DNA from: a virus
Reading direction: 5' to 3' (one strand)
Virus record (IMG/VR): IMGVR_UViG_3300033149_006345
Location: 12,592 to 76,591 of that record
DNA: 64,000 nt
Shown here: positions 22,998-39,577 of the stretch, piece after piece
Layout of the letters: the number at the start of each line of letters is the position of its first letter
Numbering within the stretch: the stretch's first letter is position 1
Made by a program: the position numbers and the translations under genes
The notes under the pieces: model-generated
What the model saw: the letters and a program-made list of their open reading frames with translations, nothing else
Database searches by the model: none
Told to the model about the DNA's origin: nothing

Positions 22998-23450
22998 ATG
23001 AGTGCAAAGCGTGATATGACCAATAATACGCTGGTGATTCCTTTTGTTACCCATACCACGCACCAGACCAACACCGGCATCTTGACCAGCAATTATGATA
23101 CGATGCGTGGTGGAGCCAACCCGACGAGGATGTTGCTGATTTTGCTGATGTCCAGTTGGGGAAGCGGTGGCTCGGTTACTGTGCGGGTACAGGATTGTAA
23201 TACCAGCAACGGTACTTTCTCTACTCGGGCAACTTTGGGGGCTGCCAACCAGTCCACCGGGCAGACTTGTTTTATGGCGGAGGTGAGCGATTTTCGCCGG
23301 TTTGTCCGTCTCAGCTATGATGTGACTGGTGCAGCTTGTACCCTGTCTATCATTGGTATTTGTCAGCGTGGGCGAAAGGAGCCGGTGACGCAGTATGATG
23401 CTGTTGGCAAGCTGTCTGTGTCCCAGACGGTTGCTCCTGAAGCCTCGTAA
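22998..23450 (+). CDS. Putative capsid decoration/cement protein (Ser/Thr-rich beta protein)
   Basis: Immediately after the MCP with the same codon bias; VTVRVQD..RRFVRL pattern. Confidence 0.65.
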   Translation: MSAKRDMTNNTLVIPFVTHTTHQTNTGILTSNYDTMRGGANPTRMLLILLMSSWGSGGSVTVRVQDCNTSNGTFSTRATLGAANQSTGQTCFMAEVSDFRRFVRLSYDVTGAACTLSIIGICQRGRKEPVTQYDAVGKLSVSQTVAPEAS

Positions 23451-23544: not shown

Positions 23545-23859
23545 ATGGCTGTTAAGGTTAAACTGACAAAACTATCTTTGATTAGACGGTATAGAAAATC
23601 TGTATTGGAAGTAAGTGAGGCGGAAGCCGCCCGGATGATCGGATCAGGGCTGGCTGTAGCAGTAACTTCTTTTGATGGACCACCGGTTAATAAACTGGTA
23701 GCTTCTCCTGGTATTAAGAAAGAAGTAGCAGAAATAAAGGAGGCTGATACCGCAGAAAACCCTACTGGGAAAGCGGAGGAACCTCCGAAACCTCCGCAGA
23801 AAAACAAAAAGAAAAAATCGAAGAAGTCAAGGAAGAAAGTCAAGGTAAATATCCAGTAG
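23545..23859 (+). CDS. Small post-capsid protein; candidate frameshift donor
   Basis: AAAGGAG RBS; EVSEAEAARMIGSGLAV and PPVNKLV resemble small head-associated proteins. Confidence 0.75.
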   Translation: MAVKVKLTKLSLIRRYRKSVLEVSEAEAARMIGSGLAVAVTSFDGPPVNKLVASPGIKKEVAEIKEADTAENPTGKAEEPPKPPQKNKKKKSKKSRKKVKVNIQ

Positions 23860-24818
23860 CACGTTGGTCTCCTTCTTTACCCTATGCACTTTGTAAGGTT
23901 GGTTGGATACAGGACGCTGAGGTATTAGGTGGTGCTGAATTATCCAATCTACAGATAATCAAACGAGGTCTGGAGTTAGGTTTTGCTATTAGGGTTATAA
24001 CTCCGGACAGTTTTGATCGTGACTGGATTGCCATTTCTGACTTTCTCATTTTCAATAACTTTTATACCTTTCCATCAAATCTTTGGCATTATTTGTTGCA
24101 AGTCATTTGGGAGTATAGGAAGCCTTATGTAATATATTCTCATGATCATCGGGATATATATGGTGAGACTGCTAGACTCTCTTTTGCATGGCGTTGGTTT
24201 AAGCATTCCTTCTTGAATGTCTTTATTTCTCCGGCACATTATGCCAACTTTAAGAAATGTTTAGGCAGTGCTGCCGAGCCGCATTTTATCTTACCCCCAC
24301 CGATAGACACCGAATTTTTCTACCCCAGGGAAGAAGTTACTAGGAAACCAAAGACTGTTGTTAATCTTACCGGTAGATTGGTTAGCAGTAAGGGTCTGAT
24401 GAATGTTTATAAGTGGGCCGCAGCAAACCCTGACTATAAGGTAAATGTTTATACGAAGTATGCCGAAGGTACCAGCGGTAAGGTTTTGGAGACTAAGAAT
24501 AATATAACTATCCATAAACCTGTACCATATGCCCTTTTGCCGTATATCTACTCTGAACATGAGTATGTGTTACATCTTCCTGAAGATTGGGAAGCGGCGG
24601 GGAGGACATTGGTAGAGGGTTTATTGTGTGGTTGGACATTGGTAGAGGGTTTATTGTGTGGTTGTATCCCGATTTGCAATAGTAAAGTAGGAGTTGCTAG
24701 TTTCGCACCGGATCTATTGTCATACGGTCGTGAAAATCTGGCTGTGATTTTGGAGGAAGGACAGTATATTTTTTGGTACAATATTTATCGGTATTTCCAG
24801 TTATTGGAGGAAAGATAG
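23748..24818 (+). CDS. GT4-like glycosyltransferase with no canonical start upstream of its N-terminal motif
   Basis: Frame open from 23748; KVGWIQD..GGAELSN at 23895 lies upstream of the first TTG (24093); GRL..KG; EAAGRTLVE motif. Confidence 0.8.
   Translation, partial: YRRKPYWESGGTSETSAEKQKEKIEEVKEESQGKYPVARWSPSLPYALCKVGWIQDAEVLGGAELSNLQIIKRGLELGFAIRVITPDSFDRDWIAISDFLIFNNFYTFPSNLWHYLLQVIWEYRKPYVIYSHDHRDIYGETARLSFAWRWFKHSFLNVFISPAHYANFKKCLGSAAEPHFILPPPIDTEFFYPREEVTRKPKTVVNLTGRLVSSKGLMNVYKWAAANPDYKVNVYTKYAEGTSGKVLETKNNITIHKPVPYALLPYIYSEHEYVLHLPEDWEAAGRTLVEGLLCGWTLVEGLLCGCIPICNSKVGVASFAPDLLSYGRENLAVILEEGQYIFWYNIYRYFQLLEER
24604..24663. repeat. Perfect 30-bp tandem duplication
   Basis: GGACATTGGTAGAGGGTTTATTGTGTGGTT occurs twice in tandem. 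Confidence 0.95.
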
Positions 24819-25820
24819 ATGCGGAAAAAGCTGTTGATTGGGGTATTCGTTGGTGAGTTAGGTTGGGAATATCTACGTTATCAAGGATATTTTAGACGCT
24901 ATGCGAGATTAAATTGTTTCAAAGAACAGGGGGATGAATGCATCGCTTTTACGTATTTTGGGCATGAGCTTTTTTATCACGATTTTTGCTCCGCTGTTTT
25001 TTCACATGAATCTTGGTTAGATGGAAGAAGAGAGATAATAGGACCACCACATGCTTTTGGGCATATGCAAATGTCCTCAGCAGTATATGATTCTCTTTGT
25101 CAGTATATTTTGAATGTTGTGTCTCATTATTATGACCATGCACAATATGATATAGAGTTTGTAAAACATCCGCTGGGTGTTGCTCATAGGGCGAATTACT
25201 TTTTGCAGGACTTTGTTGAGTTTTCGGTAAGTGAAAAAGAAATAATGTCGATTTGGATACAGTTGGAAAAGAAATATCTTATACCTGACGCACAAATTGT
25301 ATGTGTTTTTCCCAGGATGAAAGGTGATAAAAGGGATTGGGGAGCCGGTAACTATGAGAACCTGATAGAGAGTTTATTGGGGTACGGTTTTGGGGTTGTT
25401 ATTTGTGGGCATCCGCAACAGTCATTTTGTACGGATATGGAAACAAGATATGGGCTGTTGAATCTTACGGAGTTTCCAAGGCGTTATATTTTACCTCTTA
25501 CTATTTGTGCTTTGGCGAAGAGTGCTTTCGCCTTTGGGGGACAAAGTGCCCTTCCACTTATTTCTTTAGGGCAGGGGGTACCAACAGTTATGTGGGGGTG
25601 CGAGCCTAGGCGTCATAGCCAGATTTATAATTGGAGGAAAACCGCTTGTTTATTTTTGCCTTCCCAGCAGTATGATATTTCCCCCAAAGAGGTATTAGGG
25701 GCTTTTTTCGATTGGAAGGATGGTGTTTCCCGAGATGATAGACTCTCCCCTTTCCATCTCCTTGATGCTTCATTGCTTAAAGAAGGGGAAATTTTACCCA
25801 ATGAAAAGGTGAAAAGATGA
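24819..25820 (+). CDS. GT9-like (heptosyltransferase-fold) glycosyltransferase
   Basis: GELGW, KRDW..YENLIESL, LNLT, GGQSALPLISLGQGVPTV. Confidence 0.7.
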   Translation: MRKKLLIGVFVGELGWEYLRYQGYFRRYARLNCFKEQGDECIAFTYFGHELFYHDFCSAVFSHESWLDGRREIIGPPHAFGHMQMSSAVYDSLCQYILNVVSHYYDHAQYDIEFVKHPLGVAHRANYFLQDFVEFSVSEKEIMSIWIQLEKKYLIPDAQIVCVFPRMKGDKRDWGAGNYENLIESLLGYGFGVVICGHPQQSFCTDMETRYGLLNLTEFPRRYILPLTICALAKSAFAFGGQSALPLISLGQGVPTVMWGCEPRRHSQIYNWRKTACLFLPSQQYDISPKEVLGAFFDWKDGVSRDDRLSPFHLLDASLLKEGEILPNEKVKR

Positions 25821-26731
25821 AGCCGAAGATTCTTATGGTAGCGGATGTTAAAGGTTGGGCTTGGTGGTATAAGGCGCAACAGGTAAAAAAGCACCTGGCG
25901 AATGAGTTTGATATTGATATTGTATGTGTTGTTCAAGAAGGGGCATTGCCGAAAGAACTGGCTTCCAAATATGATTTATTTTTTACTTTTGCACCGAAAT
26001 ATTTGAAGATGCTTAGCAATATAGGGGTGCCAGTCAAGAAACGTATTTCTGGAATAACAGCTCATTTTTTGGGATTAGAAGATGATCTTCTACGCTTTCA
26101 GAATCATGTTGTTTACTTTCATGCAAATAGCCCTGCTTTGGTAAAAATTGCAGAGAGGTATTATCGTCATGTTTTTTACGTACCGAATGGTGTTGATGAG
26201 ACCATTTTTTATCCCACCAATAGAAAGCCGAAGGATGTTTTTATTGTGGGTCACGTAGGGAAACCTACTGCAAGGAAAGGTTTTGACTCGATAATTATGC
26301 CTGCTTTCGAGAAGGCGTTTTCCGGTGGTAGATCGGTAGCAACATTGAAGGTTAACCAACGACGATATTATAATGCTTTGTCCCAGCCGGAGATGAGAGA
26401 ATGGTATCAGGATGTAGACGTTTTGGTGTTTGCCAGCGATTTGGATGGAACTCCCAATCCGATGTTGGAGGGTGGCGCAATTGGTATTCCTTCTATAATA
26501 AATTGTATAGGAAATGCAGAGGAATTTATTAGCGATGGGGTAAATGGTTTCCTGATGCGGGAAAAGACGGTAGATGCTTATGCGGACAGATTACAATGGT
26601 GTTTTTATAACAGAGAGCAATGTTGGAAAATGGGGGAAGAGGCAAGAAAGACGGTATTGTCCAGTTGGACTTGGAAACAGAAAGTAGAGAACTATAGGAA
26701 TATGTTCAGAGAGATTTTGTCGGAGGAATAA
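25817..26731 (+). CDS. GT4 glycosyltransferase
   Basis: VPNGVD, GHVG..RKG, DGTPNPMLE, DGVNGFL. Confidence 0.9.
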   Translation: MKPKILMVADVKGWAWWYKAQQVKKHLANEFDIDIVCVVQEGALPKELASKYDLFFTFAPKYLKMLSNIGVPVKKRISGITAHFLGLEDDLLRFQNHVVYFHANSPALVKIAERYYRHVFYVPNGVDETIFYPTNRKPKDVFIVGHVGKPTARKGFDSIIMPAFEKAFSGGRSVATLKVNQRRYYNALSQPEMREWYQDVDVLVFASDLDGTPNPMLEGGAIGIPSIINCIGNAEEFISDGVNGFLMREKTVDAYADRLQWCFYNREQCWKMGEEARKTVLSSWTWKQKVENYRNMFREILSEE

Positions 26732-26732
26732 G

Positions 26733-27314
26733 ATGCCAATAATTAGAGAGCACGTTCACGATGGAACCGTTTGTTATATTGAGCCGGAGTCTATTCCGTA
26801 TATTGAAAAAGTGTTGCGTGAGTTCAAACCACAATTGATTATTGAGTTGGGCACAGCTTTTGGTGGTTTTACCAAGTATCTTTGCAATTGGTTTCCTTCC
26901 ACTCCTATTTATACTGTAGATGCCTTTTTATACGCCTCGAAAAAGGACTTGGCGTTATTTAGGAAGAGAAACGTTACTTTGTTGCTTACTGCTCAGTTGT
27001 TCGAGGGGGAAATGACCATTCCGCTTCTTTGCTCTTTGCCTCTACGTAAATTTCTGTTCTGTGATAATGGGCAAAAGGATATTGAGGTTAGATTATTTGG
27101 TGGCTATCTGCGCCCAGGTGATTTGCTGGCTGTACATGATTGGAGTGATTATAAGCAACGTTTGGAGGGGGCTTTTGAGGAGTTTGTTGCCCATCCCATC
27201 AATAAAGTTTTGAAAACGGAAGTCGATTCGGATGTCCGCTTTTTCTATAAGAAAGATAGGAGTGGTACTAGGGTTAAACCGGTAAACAAAACGGAGCATA
27301 TATGGGGAAAATGA
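26733..27314 (+). CDS. Class I SAM methyltransferase (CmcI/Methyltransf_24-like, probable sugar O-methyltransferase)
   Basis: IIELGTAFGG, FCDNG, LRPGD..VHDW. Confidence 0.8.
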   Translation: MPIIREHVHDGTVCYIEPESIPYIEKVLREFKPQLIIELGTAFGGFTKYLCNWFPSTPIYTVDAFLYASKKDLALFRKRNVTLLLTAQLFEGEMTIPLLCSLPLRKFLFCDNGQKDIEVRLFGGYLRPGDLLAVHDWSDYKQRLEGAFEEFVAHPINKVLKTEVDSDVRFFYKKDRSGTRVKPVNKTEHIWGK

Positions 27315-28225
27315 TGCCTTGTGATATAGTTGTTTCTGTGACCAAAGGATATTTTTTGTATTTGCAAATCCTTCTGGAGAGTTTTAGCAAAAGCAATCCA
27401 GATTTTTCCGGTTGTATACATATTCTTATGTATGACGAAGACGACTGGTTTCTCTCGTATTTGCGATCATGTAAACTTCCTTATGAGATCCATAAAAGAT
27501 TTTTGGGAAATGCTGTTACCAGCAAGAAGGCAACTACAGCTATGCTGGAGCGGTTTTCCTTTGCATCTGATTTGAAGAGACCGGTAATGCTGGTGGATGC
27601 TGACACCATTTTTCTAGGTAATGTTAATATGTTCTTCGATATTGCGGGTTTGGGTTATATTGTTGGATGTGGAAATGGGAAGGATATAGAGTTTGGTTTT
27701 GGTTGCAAAGCTAGTAGATTCAAATATGGGAGACCTTTTTGTTATCCTGTACCGAGCAACATACCGGAGGTGGGGGGGAAGTGCAACTATAGAACGATTG
27801 CATTGCCTTTGTTTTTAGATCCTGTAAGGTATGGTTTTTTGTTGAAGGACGTATATGATTATTATTTTTCTCAGGATGAAGACAGAAAGCTCGCCGAGTG
27901 GGTTATCTTGCAGGCACTTTTGGTTAAACACGACTTAATAGATAAGATTTTGCTTTTACCATCACATCGAACATCAAATAGTTATCATTTTATGGTGAAC
28001 CCATTGTCTGGTGTATATAAGTATAAAGAGAGGTTTTTATCATCTGCCGGAGGTGATGTGCTTATATGTCATGGCCGGGTGCTAAGCGGTTTTTGGTGGA
28101 ATGAAAGTATGGAAGCGATGAGGAATTTCTTTAGACTTTTTTCCGATGAAGATTGGTTTTTGCAAATGTGGAAAGATAATGCCCAACAGTTGCGAAATAT
28201 TGTCGGTAGTTACAGGAGAGATTGA
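27302..28225 (+). CDS. GT8-like (GT-A fold) glycosyltransferase
   Basis: YLQILLESF..NP, ERF, VMLVDADTIF DxD motif. Confidence 0.7.
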   Translation: MGKMMPCDIVVSVTKGYFLYLQILLESFSKSNPDFSGCIHILMYDEDDWFLSYLRSCKLPYEIHKRFLGNAVTSKKATTAMLERFSFASDLKRPVMLVDADTIFLGNVNMFFDIAGLGYIVGCGNGKDIEFGFGCKASRFKYGRPFCYPVPSNIPEVGGKCNYRTIALPLFLDPVRYGFLLKDVYDYYFSQDEDRKLAEWVILQALLVKHDLIDKILLLPSHRTSNSYHFMVNPLSGVYKYKERFLSSAGGDVLICHGRVLSGFWWNESMEAMRNFFRLFSDEDWFLQMWKDNAQQLRNIVGSYRRD

Positions 28226-29028
28226 TTATGTATCCTCTCATACAGGTTTTTCGTGGCAGTGTTAGTAGACCGTGGCAATTGAAAAGAACAACTCCGACTC
28301 TCTTTGATAGATTTAAGTATGCTGGAAAGATTGAATATCATTTAGTTGAAAGTGTTTTTGTCGATGAGTTGTCGGAAGAATGTCTTGAGTACGCAACATC
28401 GCAAGAGTATATCACTCATGTTATAAAACCACAACGGGGCTATGGTTATGCTATAAAATGGTTTTTGGATAATATGTGCACAGCCCCATATATGATAAAT
28501 TGGGAAGATGATTATGCTGCTGTGACAGATATTCCTCTGACCGAATGTGTTGAGTTGATGGAGACATATCCTCATATAAATCAGATATGTTTTAATAAAC
28601 GTAAAACAATGTCTTATAAGTGGGCGAGACCTGGTCATGGTAGAGAAGATTTTAAGTGGCAGAAGGAACAGAGGGAATTTCCATTGACTGATGGAAGGAT
28701 GATACCTCTAGTAGTGAAGGAGAAATGGTGGTTTGGTCCGGCTATTTGGCGAGTTTCCTTCGTCAAAGATAAGTTTGTTGGTTTTAGAGAACGAGTACAC
28801 CACCGATTCAATGATGAAGTGTTGTTTCCTTTATTTGGTCCACGCCGTTTGCCTGATGGTTCTCCTTATGTTCCAACACCTACTGAGGTAGAAGAGGTCA
28901 TTGGTTGTTATATTTATGGGAGACATAAAGATCCTCCTATGTCTAGGCATATGCAGGAGGGGGATAGTATCTGGAAAAAGGAACTTCTAGATAAATGGCG
29001 GGCAGAGGGGAGGAAGGTATATTTATGA
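28222..29028 (+). CDS. GT-A fold (GT2-like) glycosyltransferase
   Basis: RPWQLKRT, NWEDDY, PAIWR; paralog of the next gene. Confidence 0.7.
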   Translation: MIMYPLIQVFRGSVSRPWQLKRTTPTLFDRFKYAGKIEYHLVESVFVDELSEECLEYATSQEYITHVIKPQRGYGYAIKWFLDNMCTAPYMINWEDDYAAVTDIPLTECVELMETYPHINQICFNKRKTMSYKWARPGHGREDFKWQKEQREFPLTDGRMIPLVVKEKWWFGPAIWRVSFVKDKFVGFRERVHHRFNDEVLFPLFGPRRLPDGSPYVPTPTEVEEVIGCYIYGRHKDPPMSRHMQEGDSIWKKELLDKWRAEGRKVYL

Positions 29029-29753
29029 TTATTGATCTTTTGGTTACGTCTGCAAGTCGTCCTGCTCTTCTGGAGAAGACACTCACTTCATTTTCGGGTA
29101 ATGTGGAGTTAACACAACATTACTTTCGTGGCTTATTGCATGAGGATATATTAGAAGAGGAGCCATCCAAACAAATTATTGTGTGGGCATCTAGATTTTC
29201 CTTTTCTGTGGTTGAACACCATCAACCACATATTGGTTTAGGGCCAGCTATTGGTTATATGCTGGATAATTTTGTCACTTCAAAATATTTGTTTTATTTG
29301 CAAGATGATTGGGAGTTGGTACGCCCATTGGATTTAGATTTGGCTATAGATTATATGGAAAAATACCCAATGATAAATCAAATTCGTTTTAATAAAAGGA
29401 AAACAATGCCTTTTGTCGGGGATAACCCTAAGAAAAGATGGTATAAGAAAGAGGTTTTATTTGGGGATAGAATTTTTACTGTGTCACCGCATTGGGTTTT
29501 GAATCCGGCTCTATGGCGAGTTGATTTTATTAGTGACAAGTTTGTTCCTTCTTACGAGTTCTGTAACTGGCGTACCAATGATGTTTTGAAACAAGGAAAA
29601 GGGCCAAATGAAATAGATGCCGACTGGATTGCGGAAAATATGGGTACTTTTATTTGGGGTGGTATTGGTGAACCGCCCTTTTTCAGACATCTTGGGCATG
29701 GTCAAAGCGCATTAACAAAGACGGGCCAGGAGCGCCAGTATTATAGGAGATAG
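29025..29753 (+). CDS. GT-A fold (GT2-like) glycosyltransferase
   Basis: TSASRPALLEKTL, YLQDDWEL, NPALWR, HLG; ATGA overlap with the previous gene. Confidence 0.75.
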   Translation: MIIDLLVTSASRPALLEKTLTSFSGNVELTQHYFRGLLHEDILEEEPSKQIIVWASRFSFSVVEHHQPHIGLGPAIGYMLDNFVTSKYLFYLQDDWELVRPLDLDLAIDYMEKYPMINQIRFNKRKTMPFVGDNPKKRWYKKEVLFGDRIFTVSPHWVLNPALWRVDFISDKFVPSYEFCNWRTNDVLKQGKGPNEIDADWIAENMGTFIWGGIGEPPFFRHLGHGQSALTKTGQERQYYRR

Positions 29754-29759
29754 TGAGAG

Positions 29760-30314
29760 ATGGGCGACGGATCAGGGGATTTGCAGAAAATATGGCATGT
29801 ATATGTTGGTAAACATATTGTCTCCGGTTCTGTTTTGGATGTTGGGGCCGGATTAGGCAAGAGTAAAGGAAGATTGCTTATTGGTGCAGATGAAGTTGTT
29901 ACTCAGGATATTGATAGGGCAAGGATGTTAGATGTTGATGTTATTTGCCCATTAGAAGAGATAACAGAAATTTTTGATTATGTTACTGCTTTTGATGTTA
30001 TTGAGCATGTACCTCATCCGGTTAGCTTTTTGACGCATATGTGGAAGCGTTCCAGGAAAGGTATATTTGTCACTACCCCAAATGCTGTAGTTTACCCTCA
30101 TCCTTGGCATTTTACTCCTGCAAAGTTTGCTCTTCTTTTATCTGGTTTTGTTAGAGACAGACAGGAGGCCGAGCGGGTTGTTTTTGCTTACTTCTGTCGT
30201 TGTAAGACAGAGCAAGAGGATATTATAATTGAATCCACGTGGTCGGACTTTCTTCGAGCTGACTCCCCGATTGTTGGGTTGGGTGTATTGGTGCAGAGGA
30301 GAGAAAATGCGTGA
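29760..30314 (+). CDS. Class I SAM methyltransferase
   Basis: VLDVGAGLG, FDYVTAFDVIEHV, TTPN. Confidence 0.85.
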   Translation: MGDGSGDLQKIWHVYVGKHIVSGSVLDVGAGLGKSKGRLLIGADEVVTQDIDRARMLDVDVICPLEEITEIFDYVTAFDVIEHVPHPVSFLTHMWKRSRKGIFVTTPNAVVYPHPWHFTPAKFALLLSGFVRDRQEAERVVFAYFCRCKTEQEDIIIESTWSDFLRADSPIVGLGVLVQRRENA

Positions 30315-31335
30315 CTTTTACCGTATTTTGGTCTTATCTAAATTTCGCAATTACATCTCTTATTTTTCACATGGTGTTATTGAGGGAGCAATACGCAACG
30401 GCTGGCGTGCCAATTGGGTTGAGTTGCAGAAGCTAAATGATGCCGCCAATTATAAGGAGCATTGCGAGTCCATTTTGGAGCAGATAGTGCGCTATCGACC
30501 TCATGTAATTTTCTGCAATGGCATTTTTGGGGAAGACTCAGAAGCCTTTCCGGGAATATTTGATGTGCTTCTTAAAATCAGGAAAAGATTTGATGATTGC
30601 AAGATTGTTTATCATATGGGTGATCCGAGAAATGAACCTAGGTATAGGAATGACATTTCCAAACTAGTTGATATAGCTCTTTGTAATTTTGGTGGTGAGC
30701 TATTAGAGAAATTCTCGGATATTTGGAAAGTTCCTTGTTATCATTGGCCCTACGCTTGCTGGCAGTTTCCCCGATATGTAGAGAAAGAAAAGAGATATGA
30801 TTTATTATATTTGGGTAATGTGTCAGAACACCCTCGTTATAAGGACCGCACTCCATTTGTTCATTATCTTTTGGATAATGCTTCTATGGAAGTGAGAAGA
30901 TTTCCTGATGAAGAAATAGGCAATACACGCTTCTTTTTGGAAGATATTGTTCCCTATGCTAGAGGGTTATTGAGTTTAGCAGCCACTTATGATCTACCTT
31001 ACTACATAGATGCCCGTCCTTTTGAATATCTTGGTTTTGGGGGTTTGGTTTTTCGTCCAATGTCTGCTGGTTTGACGGATATTTTTGTACCTTTTTATCA
31101 CTTTATTCCTTTTGATTTTATCCCCGGAGAGCATAAGTATACTATGAAGTCTTTGGAGGAAGTATATTATGAATACACGACAGTGAAGCGAGATCAGGCG
31201 GAGAAAATACGAAGACAAGGTTTTGAGTATACCCAAAATTATCATAATTATAGGATGCGAGTTAGAGATGTTATTTTGCTTTTGGAAGGAGTAATAGAGA
31301 GGCCCCTCGTCTACTTGTCTGATTTTGACTTTTGA
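30307..31335 (+). CDS. CgeB/Glyco_trans_1_2-like glycosyltransferase
   Basis: YDLLYLG, R.FEYLGFGG, GFEYTQNYHNYRMRV. Confidence 0.8.
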   Translation: MRDFYRILVLSKFRNYISYFSHGVIEGAIRNGWRANWVELQKLNDAANYKEHCESILEQIVRYRPHVIFCNGIFGEDSEAFPGIFDVLLKIRKRFDDCKIVYHMGDPRNEPRYRNDISKLVDIALCNFGGELLEKFSDIWKVPCYHWPYACWQFPRYVEKEKRYDLLYLGNVSEHPRYKDRTPFVHYLLDNASMEVRRFPDEEIGNTRFFLEDIVPYARGLLSLAATYDLPYYIDARPFEYLGFGGLVFRPMSAGLTDIFVPFYHFIPFDFIPGEHKYTMKSLEEVYYEYTTVKRDQAEKIRRQGFEYTQNYHNYRMRVRDVILLLEGVIERPLVYLSDFDF

Positions 31336-31352
31336 TGATTGGAGGTTGTGGG

Positions 31353-32327: not shown

Positions 32328-32336
32328 GAGGAGCGA

Positions 32337-33647
32337 ATGCAGTTGGAGCGTATTTATGAAAAGTTAATGATACCAGAGACCGAAGATCGTGTTATTTTGG
32401 ATGGAAAAGAATATTCAGCCAAGGTTGGTAAGCATAGCATTTGGATTCCTGAATTGGAGTTGAAGTTGCCATTTCAGTATAACGGCCATTTTGTTGAATA
32501 TTACCATTGGTCAAGAGGGCAACATGCAGAGCGAATAAAAAATTTTACCTTTGGAACGGAACTCCCTTATGCCATGTCTTCTCTCTATAATATTGTTGAG
32601 GAATGGGCTATTTTTTACTTGCTGGCAAAACGGAAGTTGGCTCCTCCAATTGGTGGTTTTGTCTTCTTCAAGAATATACTTTCCACTTTTCCAAAAGACG
32701 TCATGCGTTGTGACCCAAAGGGCGGATATGGTTTTTTTATGAGAGATGCTTCCAAGTTGGATAAGAAATCTTTCTCACCGGATTATTTTAAGCAGGAGTT
32801 TGTGTCAAGTGGTATATTATATTGCTCCGAGACAGCATTGGGGGATATTTGTGAGGAGGGGAGAAATAATCATATAAATGGGTATATTGTTGACATTAGG
32901 AGAAGCATCCAGGATGCAATTCATCTTCGTAAATTGCCCGGATTGGATGAGATTGCGACAGATACCTATTTAACCAGCATTTGCAAAGAAATTTTTTATC
33001 AGGATGATCCTGGGAAATTGAAAGAAAGAATTGCTGTATATGGTCAATTTCCTTTCAAACAAAGAAATAAGCCTTATCAAAGCTATTGGCTCAGGAATGA
33101 ATATGTAGAAGGGGCTAGGGCTACTGAGGAAAGGTTGTCGTTGATGGGTATTCCAACTGAGCTTCCTCCTGAAACATCCGTGTTGGATTTGGGTTGTTGT
33201 ATTGGTGCTATTTGTCAAGGAATGTATTTAAGAGGGGCTAGAGATATTTTGGGATTGGAGTATCAACTAGAATATTTAGCTTGCGCCAGAGATTTAGCGA
33301 GATATAATGGTCATCAAATTTCTTACTTACAATATGATCTCTCTGATAGAGAACAGCTAGATAAGGTGATTGCTCATCTAAACAAATATTTTCCCAATGG
33401 AATTGACTATGTTTTTGCTTTGGCTATTTATAAGCATATTGGTTTGGATAATTTGTTGTACCTTTTGGAGAACATTTCTTTCAGAAATCTATATGTTGAG
33501 AGTTCATCTGTTGAATCGGTGAAAACTACGGGACATGCCAAAGAATGTAATAAACAGTTGAATAAGCGTTGGAAAACAAAGTTTTTGGGGTATACTACTG
33601 ATCGCAGTAAACGAGCGATATGGTATTGTGAAGGAGGGGAAAAATGA
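32337..33647 (+). CDS. Kinase-like domain fused to a class I SAM methyltransferase
   Basis: N-half: LK..EEWAIFYLLAKRKLAPP..GD..NN..GYIVD. C-half: PYQSY, SVLDLGCCIG, DYVFALAIYKH. Confidence 0.7.
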   Translation: MQLERIYEKLMIPETEDRVILDGKEYSAKVGKHSIWIPELELKLPFQYNGHFVEYYHWSRGQHAERIKNFTFGTELPYAMSSLYNIVEEWAIFYLLAKRKLAPPIGGFVFFKNILSTFPKDVMRCDPKGGYGFFMRDASKLDKKSFSPDYFKQEFVSSGILYCSETALGDICEEGRNNHINGYIVDIRRSIQDAIHLRKLPGLDEIATDTYLTSICKEIFYQDDPGKLKERIAVYGQFPFKQRNKPYQSYWLRNEYVEGARATEERLSLMGIPTELPPETSVLDLGCCIGAICQGMYLRGARDILGLEYQLEYLACARDLARYNGHQISYLQYDLSDREQLDKVIAHLNKYFPNGIDYVFALAIYKHIGLDNLLYLLENISFRNLYVESSSVESVKTTGHAKECNKQLNKRWKTKFLGYTTDRSKRAIWYCEGGEK

Positions 33648-33895
33648 GTCGGATTATTACCAAACCCACACCTAATTTTTATACCTGTAGGTTGCTTGAG
33701 CCGGTAAGTGAAGCAGAGTATTACTATAAGCGTTGTGCAGAGAAGAGCAAAGGACGCTGTATTGATCATGTGTATATGAAGAAGAGGGGAGAGGATTCGA
33801 CCAAATTGCAATCTTTGCGGTACAAGAAGACGATATGGACCAGGCAAGCGGCAAAAGCCCATTGTGATCAGAGAGGAGGAAGGTTTGATGTTTGA
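33644..33895 (+). CDS. Small protein resembling a head-morphogenesis accessory domain
   Basis: PNFYTCRL.EP..LQSLRY.K..WT..AK.HC..GG.F pattern. Confidence 0.6.
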   Translation: MSRIITKPTPNFYTCRLLEPVSEAEYYYKRCAEKSKGRCIDHVYMKKRGEDSTKLQSLRYKKTIWTRQAAKAHCDQRGGRFDV

Positions 33896-34472
33896 GTTTT
33901 TGGGTGGCTTCAACCATATTTTGGTTACTGGAGTGCAACGATCCGGCACTACTATTTGTGCTCAGATGATTGCACATGATTTAGGGTATAAATGGTATAA
34001 GGAAGAGAAAGTAAAAGGTGAAGATTGGATAGCCTTGTATAAGTTCTTGACTGATTTTCGTGGAATGAAGTTGGTGCTACAATGCCCTAGATTTTGCTAT
34101 TGTATCGAGCGAGTAAGTCTACCTTCAAATGCCATAGTTTTCATGGTTAGGAATAAGAGGGAGGTGTTGAAAGCACAGAGGGATATAGGATGGGATGCTT
34201 CAAAAGAAATGCAACATCCTTGTTACCGAGGTTATAAAGATATCGTTGAAGCCAAGAAGCAATATTGGGAAACAGTTCAGAAACATGGCATCTATAATGC
34301 TTTTGAAGTGAATTATCGCTCTTTGGCAAAGCATCCATTGTGGATTCCGGCCAGGTTGCGGAAAGATTTTGCATCAATGCAGACATCTTTAGCTTCTCCT
34401 TATACCTTTGATGACTCCCCTGAAGATAAGAAGTTGCGGGAGAAACTGTACAAGAGAGGAAGGATTGTCTGA
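33888..34472 (+). CDS. Sulfotransferase-like P-loop protein
   Basis: ILVTGVQRSGTT (5'-PSB-like), IVFMVRN (3'-PB-like), EVNYRSL. Confidence 0.75.
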   Translation: MFEFLGGFNHILVTGVQRSGTTICAQMIAHDLGYKWYKEEKVKGEDWIALYKFLTDFRGMKLVLQCPRFCYCIERVSLPSNAIVFMVRNKREVLKAQRDIGWDASKEMQHPCYRGYKDIVEAKKQYWETVQKHGIYNAFEVNYRSLAKHPLWIPARLRKDFASMQTSLASPYTFDDSPEDKKLREKLYKRGRIV

Positions 34473-35320
34473 TGTTTGGTATGAGTGTTACTGTTCCATA
34501 CCGTAATCGCTTTAAGTGTTTGGATAGGTGCCTTCGTCCATTATTGCGACAGAAGACAAATTTTCCTTTTGAGGTAGTGTTTGTAGATTATGGAAGCACC
34601 GATGATACTCTGAGCTATCTTTGTAAGTCTTATTCTGCTGAGATAGCTTCTAATAAGTTGGTGCTTGTTCATTATCCTGCCGACGCATTTAATTTGGCAG
34701 GAGCACGTAATGTTGGTATTGCTTTCTCTAATTATCCTTTGATTTTTACGTTTGATATTGATTCTATCTGCCTATCTGATACCATTTTGCAAGAGGTGTA
34801 TGATTTTTATTTGGATATGGAGCAAAAAGCAAAGAAAAATATACAAGATTTAGAACAATATAAACCACCATTGCTGACAAAAAATATACCTTACACTTAT
34901 GATGAATACAAGTATATCCCCTATGGACATATTGTCAGGACTGTTGGTTGGGGAAATTGTTTGTTGCATAAAGATATATTTTTTGCTATTGGTGGTTTGG
35001 ACCATATGACTTTTCGGGGCAAAGGATATGAAGATATGGCTTTTATGGTGTTGTGCTTGAGGAATGGTTATTATCTGGTTCAGTATCCTGATGTGCTATA
35101 TCGAAAGAAGAATACGAAACTGGTAAATTTCAAGGACCATGAGTTGTCACCGGAAGAAAGGGTGGAAACATATGATGTATGGGAGGATGGTTGTGACGCT
35201 GGGGCTAGAGAACGGAGTTACAGACGCTTTCGGCTGTTGGTAGAATCCCCTGGAGTACGGTATAATTCAGTAGTTGATTGGAATCTTCTCAGGAAGGAAG
35301 GATATAGAATAAATATATAG
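34472..35320 (+). CDS. GT2/GT7-like glycosyltransferase
   Basis: SVTVPYRNR, VDYGSTDDT, ARNVG, DID, GGLD..GKGYED. Confidence 0.9.
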   Translation: MFGMSVTVPYRNRFKCLDRCLRPLLRQKTNFPFEVVFVDYGSTDDTLSYLCKSYSAEIASNKLVLVHYPADAFNLAGARNVGIAFSNYPLIFTFDIDSICLSDTILQEVYDFYLDMEQKAKKNIQDLEQYKPPLLTKNIPYTYDEYKYIPYGHIVRTVGWGNCLLHKDIFFAIGGLDHMTFRGKGYEDMAFMVLCLRNGYYLVQYPDVLYRKKNTKLVNFKDHELSPEERVETYDVWEDGCDAGARERSYRRFRLLVESPGVRYNSVVDWNLLRKEGYRINI

Positions 35321-35330
35321 GGGGTTATGG

Positions 35331-35534
35331 ATGATAGTTTATGTGGATGGAAAACTCTATCATGGGGCAAGAGGTTTGGTTGCTGTATGTTTTAGTGATC
35401 GGGATTTGGAACACATTCGCAATATGGCACCGGGTTGTAGAATTTATTGTGAGTATGATGCTGATTTATGGCAGGATGAAACAGAAGTTGCTTCTATTTT
35501 GCACGAATTTATGAAGGACTGCGAGAAGGAGTGA
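35331..35534 (+). CDS. Small hypothetical protein
   Basis: 67-aa ORF, coupled. Confidence 0.6.
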   Translation: MIVYVDGKLYHGARGLVAVCFSDRDLEHIRNMAPGCRIYCEYDADLWQDETEVASILHEFMKDCEKE

Positions 35535-36544
35535 AAATGCGCTTCATCTTCAATCTGGAAAGATGCGGTGCAGCCAATAACGGTGGCACTAAGACCATTT
35601 TTGCTAGCGCCAATACTTTAGTAGATATGGGCCATGAGGTCTTTGTTGTTTCTGATATTGAGAATAAATTTACATGGTTCCCCTTGAAAGCAGAGTTTAT
35701 TCATTTTCGAGGTAAATCCAAAGAGTATCCTAGTGCAGACGCTCATATTGCTACTGGTTTTCAAACGGTCAAGCCTGTTTTGGCTTCGCCTTCTTTTACC
35801 GGTGAGAGGGTGCATTGGATTCGGGCACATGAGACTTGGATTATGAAAGACCCTACATTGGTATATCATGCCCCGACGAGGAAGCTGGTCAACAGCAAGG
35901 GTCTTCAGCAATTTATAAAAGCAAATTATGGGATTGACTCAATCATTTTATATCCTGGGATAGAGTATGATGTATTCAGGAATGTTGGGAAATATGACAT
36001 TAGTTATCCCATTGGTATTGGAGCTTTATATAACCAAAAGGCACGGAAACGTTTTCCTTGGGTGGTGGACTCTTTTCGTTTCTTAAAGAGGACATATGGT
36101 CGCGCGGTTAGGTTTATTCTGTTTGGTAATGATGGTCGTCCCATAAACTTAGAGAAACTGTTTCGTTTTTCGTATGTACAACAGCCAGCCCAAGAGCAAT
36201 TGGTGCATCTTTATAATCAATGCACATTTTGGCTAGCTCCTACAGAATCAGAAGGGTTGCATATTTGCCCGATGGAGGCAGCGTTATGTCGCTCCGTTGT
36301 TATTGGTACCGATGCTCCTTTGGCGGGTATGAGCGATTGGTTGGATGAAACCACAGGTTTTGTTTCGGAAAATGATTATGACAGCTACCTCAAAATGGTT
36401 TTATTTGCTTTCGAGCAAGAACCCAGCAAGCTGGCAGCTTTGAGTATTGCTGCCAGAGATAGAATTGTCCAAAAGATTGGTTCACGCAGGCGGAATATGG
36501 GCAAACTGGTTCATCTGATAAAATTTTGGAGGAATGAAAGATGA
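35531..36544 (+). CDS. GT4-like glycosyltransferase (WsaF-like)
   Basis: NNGG..ANTL..GHEV, IATGFQT, EGLHICPMEAALC. Confidence 0.85.
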   Translation: MKMRFIFNLERCGAANNGGTKTIFASANTLVDMGHEVFVVSDIENKFTWFPLKAEFIHFRGKSKEYPSADAHIATGFQTVKPVLASPSFTGERVHWIRAHETWIMKDPTLVYHAPTRKLVNSKGLQQFIKANYGIDSIILYPGIEYDVFRNVGKYDISYPIGIGALYNQKARKRFPWVVDSFRFLKRTYGRAVRFILFGNDGRPINLEKLFRFSYVQQPAQEQLVHLYNQCTFWLAPTESEGLHICPMEAALCRSVVIGTDAPLAGMSDWLDETTGFVSENDYDSYLKMVLFAFEQEPSKLAALSIAARDRIVQKIGSRRRNMGKLVHLIKFWRNER

Positions 36545-37563
36545 GAGCATTATTACTACGACAAAAGGTGCCCCCTGATGCCAATCGTATAACTTTTCCC
36601 TCGTTTGAGGAAATAGATGATATGTGGATGTTGCTTTTTTATAGAGCATGTAAAAGGCTTGGTTTCTCGTCGGTCGAGGTTTGGAATTGGGGTGGTACGA
36701 GGTATGTGGAATATGATGCGGAGGACTCCGTTAGATTTATTGAGCGGTGGCTCCCGAATTATTGGCCGGATGGTGCCTCTATTTTCTCCCCCGATGATGT
36801 TCAATTGGTTTTTGCTCGTGGTGGTTTTAGGGAATATATACCAATTCTGAATTATTTTAAGAATGCCGTGAAGATTTATTATGGAGCTGGTAAAAGACAT
36901 AACCCTAAGATGTTGGATGACCCGACTGACTATAATGCTGTTTTATGTGATACGAAGGAGCAGGAAAAAGAATTGACTTCGGCGGGATATACCGCTTTTA
37001 CTTTCATAAAACCAGCATGTGATACTATTTTCCACCCTTGGAAAGCTGAGAAATATTACGACGTGGTTTTTATAGCCAACGCCCCGCAACGCCAGTTAAA
37101 GGGACATGATTTTCTTTTTGATGTATTGAAGGGAACGCACTTACACCTTCTTGTTATTGGGATTGCTGATGCTTCTGTTATCTCCTGTGCCACTTTACGG
37201 GGAGTAAACTCTACATTTACTGGTTGGGTACCCAGGAAGGTAATACCTCAGTTGGCTTGTAGAGCCAAGATAGGGGTATGTTGCTCTACTTCTTATGAAT
37301 CGTGTCCACGGGTTATCCCGGAATATTTAGCTATGGATATCCCGATATTAGTGCGGTCTAGTGTTCGCTTCAATACGGATTTATATGTCACGCCGGAAAC
37401 GGGAATGTCGGCAGATGATCATACTTTCCTCAAGACCCTTGAGTATATGGTACATAATTATACTAAGTTTACACCCAGGAAGTATTACGAAGAGCATTTG
37501 TCCCTTGAAGTTGCATCTGTTTATTTTAGCGGACTGTTACGTCCATTTATTAGAGGTTTGTAG
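36541..37563 (+). CDS. GT4-like glycosyltransferase
   Basis: YDVVFIAN, KGH, ESCPRVIPEYLAMDIP. Confidence 0.8.
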   Translation: MRALLLRQKVPPDANRITFPSFEEIDDMWMLLFYRACKRLGFSSVEVWNWGGTRYVEYDAEDSVRFIERWLPNYWPDGASIFSPDDVQLVFARGGFREYIPILNYFKNAVKIYYGAGKRHNPKMLDDPTDYNAVLCDTKEQEKELTSAGYTAFTFIKPACDTIFHPWKAEKYYDVVFIANAPQRQLKGHDFLFDVLKGTHLHLLVIGIADASVISCATLRGVNSTFTGWVPRKVIPQLACRAKIGVCCSTSYESCPRVIPEYLAMDIPILVRSSVRFNTDLYVTPETGMSADDHTFLKTLEYMVHNYTKFTPRKYYEEHLSLEVASVYFSGLLRPFIRGL

Positions 37564-37565
37564 AC

Positions 37566-38516
37566 ATGCGTTTTTTGCGTGGTACAGATCGGTTATCAAT
37601 AATTACTATAGATTATGCCAACCGCTATAATATAGGAAATTATCATCTTAATGCCGAGTTAGCAAGTAACTTCAAGGAGGTGCGTTATTATTTCTTGGAG
37701 AATGGTTTTTCTTTGGATGACCCCTTCTTGTTGTCCAGCGACATGATTTTTATTAACAGACCACTACGAAAGACGATACAGAGAACAGTTGAGGGGGAAA
37801 CCTACCGAAAGCTGAATTTCAAGTCTATTGATGGTATTGTGGTCCTTTTTGATACTGACCCACAGGTTTTAAGTATAAAAGAGCGGGCCAAAGTGATAGA
37901 TAATATTGGCGTGGATCTGTTGCTATTGGGAAATAATGATGCTAGAGTTGTAGAACATAACAGGTTTTTTGGTGGACGTATTTTATGCAAGTGGCTCCCC
38001 TTTGGAGTGAATCTAGATCACTTTTACGATATGGGGATAGAGAGGGATATTGTAAGTGGTTTTATCGGCTCATATAGAAACTATTATTATGGCAAAAGAA
38101 AGGAGATGGTAGAGTATTTACGAGAGAAATTGGGCAACCGTTTCTTTTGGAAGAGGATGATAAAAGAGGAATATCTTTTGTTCCTAAATAGAATAAAACT
38201 GTTTGTCTTAGCAAATGACTTAACTGGTGGTTTCTTTATGAAGCATTTGGAAAGTATGGCTTCTGGTTGTTTGTTAGTGGCTGAATATACTCCTTTGTTA
38301 GAACGTTTGGGTTTTGTGCCTTCTGAAGATCTTATTGTATGGAATACTTTGCAGGAATGTGAGCAAGCTATTTTGTATTATGCTGTTTATGAGGGCAATC
38401 GGGGGCAGATAATAGAAAATGCGAAGAAGAAGATCAAGGAGCATCATACATGGGCACACAGGGTAAAGTGGTTGTTAACTTGGGCAAGTGGAAAAAACCT
38501 AGATATAAGCTATTAA
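37566..38516 (+). CDS. CgeB/Glyco_trans_1_2-like glycosyltransferase
   Basis: WLPFGVN, GFIGS, KHLESMASGCLL, HTWAHRV. Confidence 0.85.
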   Translation: MRFLRGTDRLSIITIDYANRYNIGNYHLNAELASNFKEVRYYFLENGFSLDDPFLLSSDMIFINRPLRKTIQRTVEGETYRKLNFKSIDGIVVLFDTDPQVLSIKERAKVIDNIGVDLLLLGNNDARVVEHNRFFGGRILCKWLPFGVNLDHFYDMGIERDIVSGFIGSYRNYYYGKRKEMVEYLREKLGNRFFWKRMIKEEYLLFLNRIKLFVLANDLTGGFFMKHLESMASGCLLVAEYTPLLERLGFVPSEDLIVWNTLQECEQAILYYAVYEGNRGQIIENAKKKIKEHHTWAHRVKWLLTWASGKNLDISY

Positions 38517-39577
38517 ACCGTGTTGCTGTGAATTTTGGTAATGGGCTGGGTAATTTTGTAATGTTGACGCCTACTCTGCATGGTTTATCTCGGATGTATA
38601 ATGCCGCTATCGACTTGGTTTTTGATGATACATGGCGGGATAGTAGACGGAAGTCTGTAGAGGAATTGTTCGCAAGTTGTTTTTATGGCGGTGAGATTAT
38701 AAATTTTACCGGCCCATCTTCACTTGATTTGGAGCGATATAAGGCGATCTATTGGACTTCTCATGGGGAGGTCAATCCTGCTTGGGAGTATATGCGGGAA
38801 GTAGCGACGATTAAAGCCTCATTTGAGGATGAGGATGATACCTGGAGACAAGTCAAAATACATGAGGTTGATTTTTATCTGAAGCCACTTATTAAACTTG
38901 GTTATATTAAACGACCGACCCCTCAGTTGTTTGGTTTTAACGATGTCAGAAGGGTGGTAAGAAAGGGTTGGAAGACCAGGAGAGGACAAGTTTTCAATGG
39001 GCTTTTGCCTTTGGTTATCGGTTTCTGTAATGGGTTTTTTGGAGAGGAAGACAGCGTTTGGTCAAGGAAAGCATGGCCGTATTTTGGTGAATTGGCGTTG
39101 ATGTTGTACGGGTTTTTTGGGGATTTGGTTGATATTCAATTATTTGGAAAAGGAGCACAAGAGAGACGATGGGCAGAAACGGTAGTATCTATGCTAGAAG
39201 CTAAGAATTACTATGCAAAAAATTTTGTTGACAGGCTTACTTTACCTCATACAATAAAGAAGATGGGTGATGTAGATATTTTTGTTACTACGGATACTGG
39301 TTTAATGCATGTGGCTGATGCCATGGGGATACCGTCGGTGATTTTATTTGGGGCGACATTGGCGAGTAAGAACGGACCATACACTATGCTACGAAAGCGA
39401 CTGGTTCATAGTTTGGAAGGCTGTGCTCCCTGTCAGAACACTTACCATTTCCATCTGTGCAAAGATTACAAATGTATGAGGTCCATCACTCCGGCAGATG
39501 TTTTTCCACAAATTTTGGCGTTGTGTAAATCTATGGGCTTTGTATTTCCTATTTTAAGGGGGCGCAAATGGCGATAG
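38450..39577 (+). CDS. GT9 (ADP-heptose transferase-like) glycosyltransferase
   Basis: GLGNFVMLTP, HEVD, KAWPYF, TDTGLMHVADAMGIPSVILFGAT, C-terminal CAPCQ..C..CM. Confidence 0.88.
   Translation: MGTQGKVVVNLGKWKKPRYKLLNRVAVNFGNGLGNFVMLTPTLHGLSRMYNAAIDLVFDDTWRDSRRKSVEELFASCFYGGEIINFTGPSSLDLERYKAIYWTSHGEVNPAWEYMREVATIKASFEDEDDTWRQVKIHEVDFYLKPLIKLGYIKRPTPQLFGFNDVRRVVRKGWKTRRGQVFNGLLPLVIGFCNGFFGEEDSVWSRKAWPYFGELALMLYGFFGDLVDIQLFGKGAQERRWAETVVSMLEAKNYYAKNFVDRLTLPHTIKKMGDVDIFVTTDTGLMHVADAMGIPSVILFGATLASKNGPYTMLRKRLVHSLEGCAPCQNTYHFHLCKDYKCMRSITPADVFPQILALCKSMGFVFPILRGRKWR

Follow-up and report, generated by a model that had tools for sequence, protein, structure and literature searches.

In the mycobacteriophages Che8, Corndog/cluster O and Myrna, phage-encoded glycosyltransferases (GTs) and an O-methyltransferase modify capsid and tail-tube subunits (Freeman et al. 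2023, Cell Host Microbe 31:1216, as cited in PMC12619734, PMC11600133 and PMC13313380), and the glycans are located at the C-termini of these subunits (PMC12619734 and PMC11600133). In the literature consulted, experimentally shown glycosylation of phage particles is limited to a few actinobacteriophages, with two to four enzymes each. Here, we analyze a stretch of 64,000 nucleotides (hereafter, the window; bases 12592-76591) from the linear 76.6-kb IMG/VR virus contig IMGVR_UViG_3300033149_006345 (~70% complete according to CheckV), in which an island of predicted GT genes and associated genes (window positions 23545-39577) lies between the capsid genes and the head-tail adaptor gene. As in the mycobacteriophages, the GT and methyltransferase genes of the island are phage-encoded and are found among the virion structural genes on the late strand. 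However, the mycobacteriophage systems consist of two to four GTs and one methyltransferase, whereas the island encodes 11-13 GTs, three methyltransferases (one of them fused to a kinase-like domain) and a sulfotransferase-like protein.

Comparison with related contigs establishes that the island is a genuine, old, head-module-linked phage feature whose interior, enclosed by two conserved bracket enzymes, is exchanged rapidly. The best reading, to which we assign a probability of about 0.6, is that the island encodes a late, cytoplasmic glycan assembly line that would glycosylate the phage's own particle.

Organization and gene content of the island

The island is an unbroken series of 20 plus-strand open reading frames (ORFs; c01-c20) extending from the side of the major capsid protein (MCP) to the adaptor. 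Adjacent ORFs overlap by 1-86 nt or are separated by gaps of no more than 10 nt, the exception being c01/c02, where the 233-nt junction is a frameshift overlap; at the other end, c20 overlaps the adaptor gene. Neither promoter-like sites (38 versus 48.2 +/- 6.3 expected from shuffled sequence) nor terminator-like sites (17 versus 14.7 +/- 3.7) are enriched within the island. A preliminary description of this DNA, made from the letters alone, had reported the coordinates, the tight packing and a late-strand placement between capsid and connector genes, all of which we confirm. The GC content of the island (0.39-0.41) is below that of the flanking structural genes (0.43-0.49). The island, its borders and the tail tube gene downstream comprise the following features:

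21684-22964, plus strand: HK97-fold MCP (PHROG 10, E 7e-56; PF05065 in homologues)
22998-23450, plus strand: o150, a 150-aa, Ser/Thr-rich, probable capsid decoration/cement protein and candidate acceptor (weak Bbp16 match, E 0.04)
23545-23859, plus strand: c01, small head-module protein with a ~70-aa N-terminal domain and a Lys-rich tail (family-wide iterative hidden Markov model, HMM)
23748-24818, plus strand: c02, first GT, a divergent GT4-like GT-B enzyme (weak Pfam hits on both halves)
24819-25820, plus strand: c03, tentative GT (TIGR04372, E 1e-4, below cut-off; orthologue with 37% identity in the relative G001)
25817-26731, plus strand: c04, GT4-type GT (PF00534, E 2.6e-13)
26733-27314, plus strand: c05, possible CmcI/rhamnosyl O-methyltransferase-like protein, weak (PF04989, E 1.6e-3, below cut-off)
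27302-28225, plus strand: c06, tentative GT8-like protein (PF01501, E 0.02)
28222-29028, plus strand: c07, GT-A/GT2-like protein, paralogue of c08 (hhalign of c07 versus c08, 100%)
28995-29753, plus strand: c08, GT-A/GT2-like GT (ESM Atlas structural matches to GT2 clusters, TM 0.71, feature score 0.98)
29760-30314, plus strand: c09, S-adenosylmethionine (SAM) methyltransferase, moderate support (PF13489, E 4.5e-6)
30229-31335, plus strand: c10, CgeB-like GT (Glyco_trans_1_2, PF13524, 27.0 bits versus a cut-off of 25)
31332-32327, plus strand: c11, CgeB-like GT (PF13524, 29.9 bits versus a cut-off of 25; 55% orthologue in G001)
32337-33647, plus strand: c12, predicted kinase-like N-domain (1 to ~225) and SAM methyltransferase C-domain (~227-436) (AlphaFold, AF2)
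33644-33895, plus strand: c13, small basic protein of 83 aa (no family match)
33864-34472, plus strand: c14, divergent sulfotransferase-like protein (PF13469 P-loop for 3'-phosphoadenosine 5'-phosphosulfate, PAPS; E 1.5e-4)
34472-35320, plus strand: c15, GT2 glycosyltransferase (PF00535, E 1.5e-13)
35331-35534, plus strand: c16, acidic ORF of 67 aa (no family match)
35531-36544, plus strand: c17, GT4-type GT (PF13692, E 3.5e-8; homologues in G001, G002, G003, G005 and L140)
36541-37563, plus strand: c18, GT4-type GT (PF13692 and PF00534; homologues in G001, G002, G003 and G005)
37566-38516, plus strand: c19, CgeB-like GT (PF13524, E 2.5e-13, 50.7 bits versus a cut-off of 25)
38450-39577, plus strand: c20, GT9-fold GT, last island gene (PF01075, 52.2 bits versus a cut-off of 22)
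39568-40185, plus strand: head-tail adaptor, the downstream border (PHROG 442, E 4e-15)
41693-42205, plus strand: Ig-like major tail (tube) protein, candidate second acceptor (PHROG 2175, E 2.7e-22)

Thirteen GTs had initially been counted; 11 of them (c02, c04, c07, c08, c10, c11, c15, c17, c18, c19 and c20) are supported by Pfam, hhalign or ESM Atlas, whereas c03 and c06 are kept as tentative because hhalign tied neither of them to any other GT of the island. Pfam matches above or near the cut-off were obtained for GT1/GT4 (c04, c17 and c18), Glyco_trans_1_2 (c10, c11 and c19), GT2 (c15) and GT9 (c20). The GT4-type pair c17 and c18 is common to the closer relatives of the window, and a single ORF of G001 (L100:9792-10520) matches both c08 and c07. 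No PHROG matches were found for c03, c06, c07, c13 and c16, and single-sequence searches of the PDB with c07, c08 and c02 returned nothing useful. In G001, the c04 orthologue is broken into ORFs of 196 and 129 aa (L100 4940-5910), which could represent a frameshift or a decaying gene.

No convincing transmembrane helix was found in the 20 island ORFs: the highest Kyte-Doolittle mean over 19 residues was 1.87, and the hydropathy peaks fall inside Rossmann cores and include charged residues. Pfam searches of the island identified no flippase (Wzx), polymerase (Wzy), Gtr-type component or priming phosphoglycosyltransferase, and the families typical of serotype-converting cassettes (GtrABC, O-antigen polymerase/acetylase), like any integral membrane component, were not found among the island ORFs. 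The absence of membrane segments, flippase, Wzy and Gtr components noted in the preliminary description thus stands, and so does that of nucleotide-sugar biosynthesis genes, which are, however, present in sibling islands.

The three methyltransferases of that description hold with moderate support for c09 and c12 and weakly for c05. The sulfotransferase-like assignment of c14 is upheld by the P-loop match and by hhalign to genuine sulfotransferases of the G001 and G002 islands (70%, E 4e-5, 161 columns). The fusion in c12 of a predicted kinase-like domain and a methyltransferase domain also appears real and similar to the Escherichia coli enzyme WbdD. Over its full length, the AF2 model, built with a 30-sequence alignment, has a pLDDT of 93.5; the N-terminal 245 residues, folded by themselves, reach 90.6. 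In this model, the methyltransferase domain (residues 227-436) is of class I and WbdD occupies the top three ranks in Foldseek; a Foldseek-independent comparison with VIA aligned 190 residues to 4ax8_A (Z 16.0, rmsd 3.2, 22% identity), with WbdD tied for the best Z and showing the highest identity among the listed matches, while generic methyltransferases score about equally. For the N-domain, all of the 50 best VIA matches are protein-kinase-like (RIO, Bud32, OspG, CotH, PknB, YihE and others), at Z of only 4.5-6.1; Foldseek with this domain returned nothing significant (E >= 0.09), and the ESM Atlas leads were Kdo kinase, APH and RIO. In the alignment, K32, K43, E89, D170 and N178 are invariant and D186 is near-invariant, in a kinase-like order. 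Thus, c12 probably unites a WbdD-like methyltransferase with a minimal kinase that would act on sugars or proteins.

Of the two smallest ORFs, c13 was probably displaced from the head module and is unlikely to be an enzyme of glycan synthesis, because its homologues, mapped by tblastn, are located upstream of the MCP gene, between it and the protease/scaffold gene, in L007, L009, L010, L011, L053 and L056; in L126, L128 and L143, the c13 homologue is part of much longer ORFs.

The last enzyme, c20, belongs to a family in which the nucleotide-sugar motif TDTGLMH is near-invariant. The family profile matches WaaF (1psw; E 2.5e-16) only up to profile position 286 of 333, beyond which c20 carries a C-terminal extension with four invariant cysteines (C319, C322, C331 and C336). 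Against the NCBIfam lipopolysaccharide (LPS) heptosyltransferase equivalogs, c20 reached at best 49.2 bits, below the cut-off of 134.6.

The first two ORFs, c01 and c02, initially described as separate, are probably one frameshifted gene. The c02 frame is -1 relative to c01 and is open from 23748, with the first ATG, GTG or TTG only at 24093. The ~115 start-less codons encode a conserved GT N-domain with a GGAELSN motif, and the Glyco_transf_4 N-domain match of c02 maps upstream of the TTG start. The GT-B assignment of c02 is supported by hhalign of its 31-member family profile with the profiles of c17/c18 (93% probability, E 3e-7). The GT frame of the window and that of the G001 group are both already open 112-130 nt ahead of the c01 stop and lack start codons for ~115 codons; the likely -1 slip site in the window is the in-frame AAA AAG / AAA AAA run at ~23805-23817, within the Lys run. 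The G001 group (L100 and L004) has the same -1 split with AAA AAG in the overlap, and in L008, L009 and L011 the c01 domain and a c02-type GT form a single in-frame ORF of 375 aa. No stimulatory RNA structure was found downstream of the slip site (z -0.1 and +0.5). The arrangement fits a programmed -1 frameshift that would yield both c01 and a c01-GT fusion. For any single contig, transcriptional slippage or a sequencing error could also account for it, but the identical split in two diverged lineages argues against a sequencing error.

The iterative HMM placed the c01 domain in 52 loci, invariably downstream of MCP/o150 and upstream of the adaptor, including GT-less relatives, in which c01 stands alone as a protein of 85-125 aa. 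Searches of Pfam, PHROGs and the PDB, including a PDB profile search, gave no match for c01. Among the structural hints that the first enzyme works at the head, the c01-GT fusion is the strongest.

Distribution of the island among related contigs

Searching IMG/VR with a profile built from MCP homologues gave 73 loci, onto which the window proteins were mapped by tblastn, and longer stretches of five records were read. In a quick, midpoint-rooted MCP tree, one clade (35 rows, SH-aLRT 100) has an MCP-adaptor distance of 0.83-0.95 kb wherever the contig reaches the adaptor, with the exception of L014 (1.6 kb), L046 (1.8 kb) and L013 (6.4 kb). Thus, ~25 resolved relatives pass from capsid to adaptor without a GT island, in agreement with the earlier statement that HK97-like relatives go directly from capsid to connector. 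In contrast, every resolved relative outside this compact clade has a GT island, with MCP-adaptor intervals of 16.6 kb in the window, 21.3 kb in G001, 15.7 kb in G003 (not in the tree because its MCP is partial), 9.8 kb in G002 and 6.8 kb in G005. Since the lineages with GTs are paraphyletic with respect to the GT-less clade, and GTs also accompany more distant MCPs, the most parsimonious history suggested by this tree would be a single loss of the island. A GT-less relative that is 98% complete has a lone GT2 domain, at a distance from the head genes and within an open frame of 523 aa (G007:C1:7517-7861, minus strand).

In G001, orthologues of the window proteins lie in colinear order at 37-57% identity, and the island additionally encodes a PAPS-reductase-domain protein, a Methyltransf_24 protein, another GT2, a B12-binding radical SAM enzyme, an NAD-dependent epimerase/dehydratase, a solid sulfotransferase, a DUF2334-like protein and an HNH endonuclease. 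G002 adds WbqC (E 4e-74) and a sulfotransferase, and G003 adds two GT2 enzymes (one of them a GT2-methyltransferase fusion), two GT4 enzymes, a CgeB-like GT and four further methyltransferases. The earlier remark that the window has far more enzymes than the phage cases known is fair with respect to the literature consulted, although the G001 island is even larger than that of the window. HNH/NUMOD3 homing-endonuclease-like genes are found within or adjacent to the G001 and G002 islands (L101 1170-1808 and L103 10743-11501, minus strand). Such genes may drive the mosaic turnover of island content.

Independent sampling with a profile of 35 c20 homologues yielded 33 further viral contigs with more distant MCPs, 24 of which show the order MCP, c02-like GT, variable stretch and c20-like GT9, with the adaptor next where detectable. 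The stretch between the two bracket genes in these 24 contigs measures -61 to 8,319 bp, and the shortest islands (L134, L135 and L110) consist of the two bracket GTs alone. A Pfam census of 84 distinct ORFs from the middles of the GT9-sampled islands counted 18 GT2, at least 7 methyltransferases, 5 hexapeptide acyltransferases, 4 DegT-type sugar aminotransferases, 4 GT17 and 2 epimerase/dehydratases; no membrane-transport family is among the 25 most frequent Pfam families of these ORFs. Two contigs from metagenome-assembled genomes (MAGs), binned as Pirellulales and Brevinema, share the layout. Overall, in ~30 contigs, a c02-type GT4-like enzyme comes first after the capsid genes and a c20-type GT9 is always the final island gene, adjoining the adaptor, with a middle that ranges from nothing to ~20 kb; the junction genes overlap in the window and abut or overlap in relatives.

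The site can also hold other cargo. In L013 (G004), positions 12040-16999 encode a protein with a Gp80 'podophage GP4 fiber I' domain (E 6e-24) followed by proteins of 287, 693 and 474 aa without an assigned function. This looks like a head-fibre island, and the fibre-domain protein suggests that the locus serves capsid-surface accessories.

Among cultured phages, blastn with the head region gave no match, and the best MCP matches in tblastn, to Streptococcus and Vibrio phages, reach only ~25% identity. Related contigs L075, L143, L142 and L140 are binned in MAGs assigned among Thermoplasmata, Bathyarchaeota, Brevinema and Pirellulales, most of them probably by mis-binning. Such evident mis-binnings, in archaeal and other MAGs, make host calls from binning unreliable here; the host is uncertain, and the sole hints are relatives binned in Planctomycetota MAGs.

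Candidate acceptors and competing explanations

Several features of the island speak for the particle-glycosylation reading. The island sits, tightly packed and with no excess of promoter-like or terminator-like sites, in the late head operon; the site and the bracket recur across deep MCP divergence in both the MCP and the independent GT9 sampling; and the first GT is fused to c01, a protein found even in GT-less loci. To these is added the lack of convincing membrane segments, flippase, polymerase and priming phosphoglycosyltransferase. The most likely targets would be the MCP and the probable decoration protein o150, and probably the tail tube. In the window, the MCP ends in ...DDVASAS, o150 in ...APEAS and the tail tube protein in ...GGPAS. 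A terminal Ser after a variable tail is found in 27 of the 27 more distant GT-bearing MCPs, and the tail-tube homologues of G001 and G002 likewise end in Ser. The arrangement of o150 next to the MCP is conserved in relatives, and Ser and Thr make up 24% of o150. In L005 (6140-7078), the o150 homologue ends in an 18-residue, almost all-Ser tail and the c01 homologue has a long Ser-rich linker; this contig stops before any GT could be seen. The terminal Ser can be likened to the C-terminal glycans on mycobacteriophage capsid and tail-tube subunits (PMC12619734), but the likeness is not discriminating.

In the mechanism that we propose, host nucleotide sugars would feed the island enzymes, and the first GT, tethered to c01 by a probable -1 frameshift here and by in-frame fusion in relatives, would act on or near the capsid. 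This GT and the GT9 enzyme with its extra four-Cys finger would make a conserved core, which accessory GT4, GT2 and CgeB-like enzymes would lengthen; the methyltransferases, the sulfotransferase-like c14 and the kinase-methyltransferase c12 would then modify the glycan or cap it. Through turnover of the genes between the bracket pair, each phage lineage would acquire its own glycan type. The domain content thus suggests a glycan that may be long and may be methylated, sulfated or phosphorylated.

A more specific version of this proposal, which we put forward as possible but tentative, is that uncultured siphoviruses, possibly infecting Planctomycetota, coat capsid and tail with a long, lineage-specific, methylated, sulfated and methyl-phosphate-capped glycan, built on a GT4-GT9 base by a frameshift-tethered priming enzyme and diversified by a middle of up to ~20 kb. 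Such a coat could be a phage counterpart of O-antigen serotype variation under selection at the particle surface, where adsorption to non-host surfaces, grazers, host surface enzymes and particle stability are candidate pressures.

Several observations weigh against particle glycosylation. The acceptors named above are candidates, and c01 matches no family that would assign it a function. The MCP terminal Ser is kept by nearly all GT-less relatives, among which two complete genomes (108 and 112 kb) contain no GT1, GT2 or CgeB-like gene. As a tag specific to GT-bearing phages, the terminal Ser therefore failed, since GT-less relatives, complete genomes included, retain it; the tag may be ancestral, or unrelated to glycosylation. 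No homologue was detectable in cultured phages, the glycosylated mycobacteriophages included: tblastn with c02 and c17 against 50,697 phage records gave no match, and c20 gave marginal matches only, to non-mycobacterial phages. Finally, soluble sets of GT9, GT4, GT8 and kinase enzymes also typify LPS-core (waa) loci, and WbdD-like cappers belong to host O-antigen pathways. Because soluble or peripheral GTs exist in the LPS-core and ABC-transporter pathways, the lack of membrane proteins is compatible with host lipid-linked glycans as well.

The last points lead to the most serious competitor, remodelling of the host envelope, which we nevertheless regard as unlikely. Here, soluble GTs at the inner membrane face would act on lipid A-core or undecaprenyl-linked intermediates and host exporters would carry the product out, so that an altered LPS, O-antigen or capsule would mask receptors, excluding superinfection or preventing progeny from sticking to debris. 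The domain set indeed resembles transmembrane-free LPS-core and ABC-dependent O-antigen loci, with a GT9 nearest to WaaF/WaaC, GT4 enzymes, a tentative GT8, a Kdo-kinase-like domain and a WbdD-like methyltransferase, and sibling islands carry O-antigen-type genes, namely WbqC, DegT aminotransferases, hexapeptide acetyltransferases and epimerase/dehydratases. However, the island is always within the late head operon in ~30 contigs, never beside early or lysogeny genes, and a start late in the lytic cycle would leave little time to remodel the surface. The fusion of a head-module protein to the first GT is not expected from this explanation, and c20 falls far under the LPS heptosyltransferase cut-offs and bears a Cys finger absent from those enzymes. 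No integrase was seen on the contig, although at ~70% completeness lysogeny genes could lie off it, which is a further point against particle glycosylation.

It is also conceivable, although improbable, that the island makes a glycoconjugate, either soluble or bound to lipid, or that it glycosylates a protein outside the virion (for example, a host factor or an enzyme of the phage), and that the head-operon site is a mere permissive hot spot. The locus does accept unrelated cargo (the Gp80 fibre-like island of L013, the HNH endonucleases in G001/G002 and the displaced c13), its GC content is below that of the flanking structural genes and the acceptors proposed above are candidates; but the same two bracket genes are kept in order across deeply diverged MCPs and the c01-GT fusion is maintained, neither of which a permissive site would explain.

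Outside the island, the late genes continue downstream of the adaptor with Hc1, a neck protein, a tail terminator, the Ig-like tail tube and the tape measure protein (TMP), and the rest of the window contains genes for replication, for an MT-A70 methylase and for a member of the thymidylate synthase family. Within the window, no tRNA genes were detected. The features concerned are:

5218-5820, minus strand: MT-A70 DNA methyltransferase, early region (E 2e-31)
6700-7380, minus strand: thymidylate-synthase-family protein, truncated-looking, early region
15162-17516, plus strand: large terminase of 784 aa with an intein (Hint domain, E 3e-17, and homing-endonuclease domain)
17513-18025, plus strand: S-adenosylmethionine decarboxylase, between terminase and portal (PF02675, E 1e-15)
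18279-19919, plus strand: portal
19947-21656, plus strand: protease/scaffold

In this phage, with its many SAM methyltransferases, the decarboxylase could affect the pools of SAM or polyamines.

The thymidylate-synthase-family gene could encode a hydroxymethylase, which would make room for glycosylation of phage DNA, that is, hypermodification of hydroxymethylated bases against restriction, and multi-GT cases of this kind are known (Pyle et al. 2024, as cited in PMC12619734). This explanation, raised as an alternative in the preliminary description, is not supported and appears very improbable: the thymidylate-synthase-like gene does not track the island, being present in the GT-less G006, G008 and G009 and not found in the GT-bearing G003, and the GTs are in the head operon, away from nucleotide-metabolism genes. 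We know of no DNA glycan that approaches the demands of 13 GTs together with sulfo-, kinase and methyl-transfer enzymes. An assembly chimera, in which a host polysaccharide locus was joined into a phage contig, would fit the GC content slightly under that of the flanks but is excluded by the recurrence of the architecture on ~30 independent viral and MAG contigs from different samples, by the colinearity of the G001 orthologues and by the overlapping junction genes, so that the island, as earlier proposed, is a phage feature and not a chimeric insert.

If the particle-glycosylation reading is correct, natural phage particles can bear glycans as elaborate as bacterial O-antigens, and the trait is old and modular, combining a fixed two-enzyme core with a middle that can be swapped. 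Like their hosts, phages may then vary their surfaces by 'serotype', which would affect the adsorption, persistence and recognition of environmental phages. A compact, soluble set of GTs and capping enzymes acting on a defined protein shell would also be useful for glycoengineering, and the c01-GT frameshift fusion offers a concrete, testable handle on how the enzymes locate the capsid.

Comparison with known systems

Literature searches turned up no relevant account of a large island of GTs or sulfotransferases in the structural module of a phage. Chloroviruses and mimivirus encode cytoplasmic machineries of multiple GTs and methyltransferases that build capsid or fibril glycans independently of host membranes. 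These giant viruses differ in having eukaryotic hosts and unrelated capsids, and their glycosylation genes are dispersed or in separate clusters.

The chain-capping (terminating) methyltransferase-kinase WbdD of E. coli O9a (4ax8, 4azs) unites the same two domain types as are predicted for c12. However, in WbdD the methyltransferase precedes the kinase and is followed by a C-terminal coiled-coil ruler, whereas in c12, known here from sequence and a model, a minimal, highly divergent kinase-like domain comes first and the methyltransferase forms the end of the protein, without a ruler. The LPS-core (waa) loci encode WaaC and WaaF (GT9), WaaG (GT4), WaaO/R/J (GT8) and the kinases WaaP, WaaY and KdkA, and the island combines the same soluble families in one locus. 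Among these, c20 keeps the GT9 nucleotide-sugar motif and matches WaaF by profile, yet it corresponds to no equivalog and has the extra four-Cys module; furthermore, the island lacks lipid A and Kdo genes and is placed in a phage head operon.

The bacterial autotransporter heptosyltransferases (BAHT) TibC and AAH are GT-B enzymes related to GT9. In the cytoplasm, they O-glycosylate Ser residues of a folded protein, and the four-Cys 'iron finger' of their C-lobe binds the protein substrate (PMC4358343). The four invariant cysteines of c20 are at a comparable C-terminal position, so that its Cys finger recalls, as a lead, the substrate-binding finger of TibC. However, the spacing differs (C339, C342, C358 and C370 in TibC versus CxxC-x8-C-x4-C in c20), c20 is without the N-terminal beta-barrel, and no sequence match to TibC was found even at E 10.

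The closest functional parallel is with the mycobacteriophages. There the hosts are actinobacterial, whereas the host here does not appear to be an actinobacterium and binning hints at Planctomycetota; the island GTs have no detectable sequence homology to the GTs of cultured phages. The MCP and tail tube here end in Ser, and glycosylation is predicted from the genes. Under the particle-glycosylation reading, the island would be a much larger variant of mycobacteriophage-type virion glycosylation, and what is specific to it is its size, the GT4...GT9 bracket with a hypervariable interior in ~30 contigs, the fusion of the first GT to a head-module protein, by a probable frameshift here and in frame in relatives, and the probable WbdD-like enzyme with its domain order reversed.

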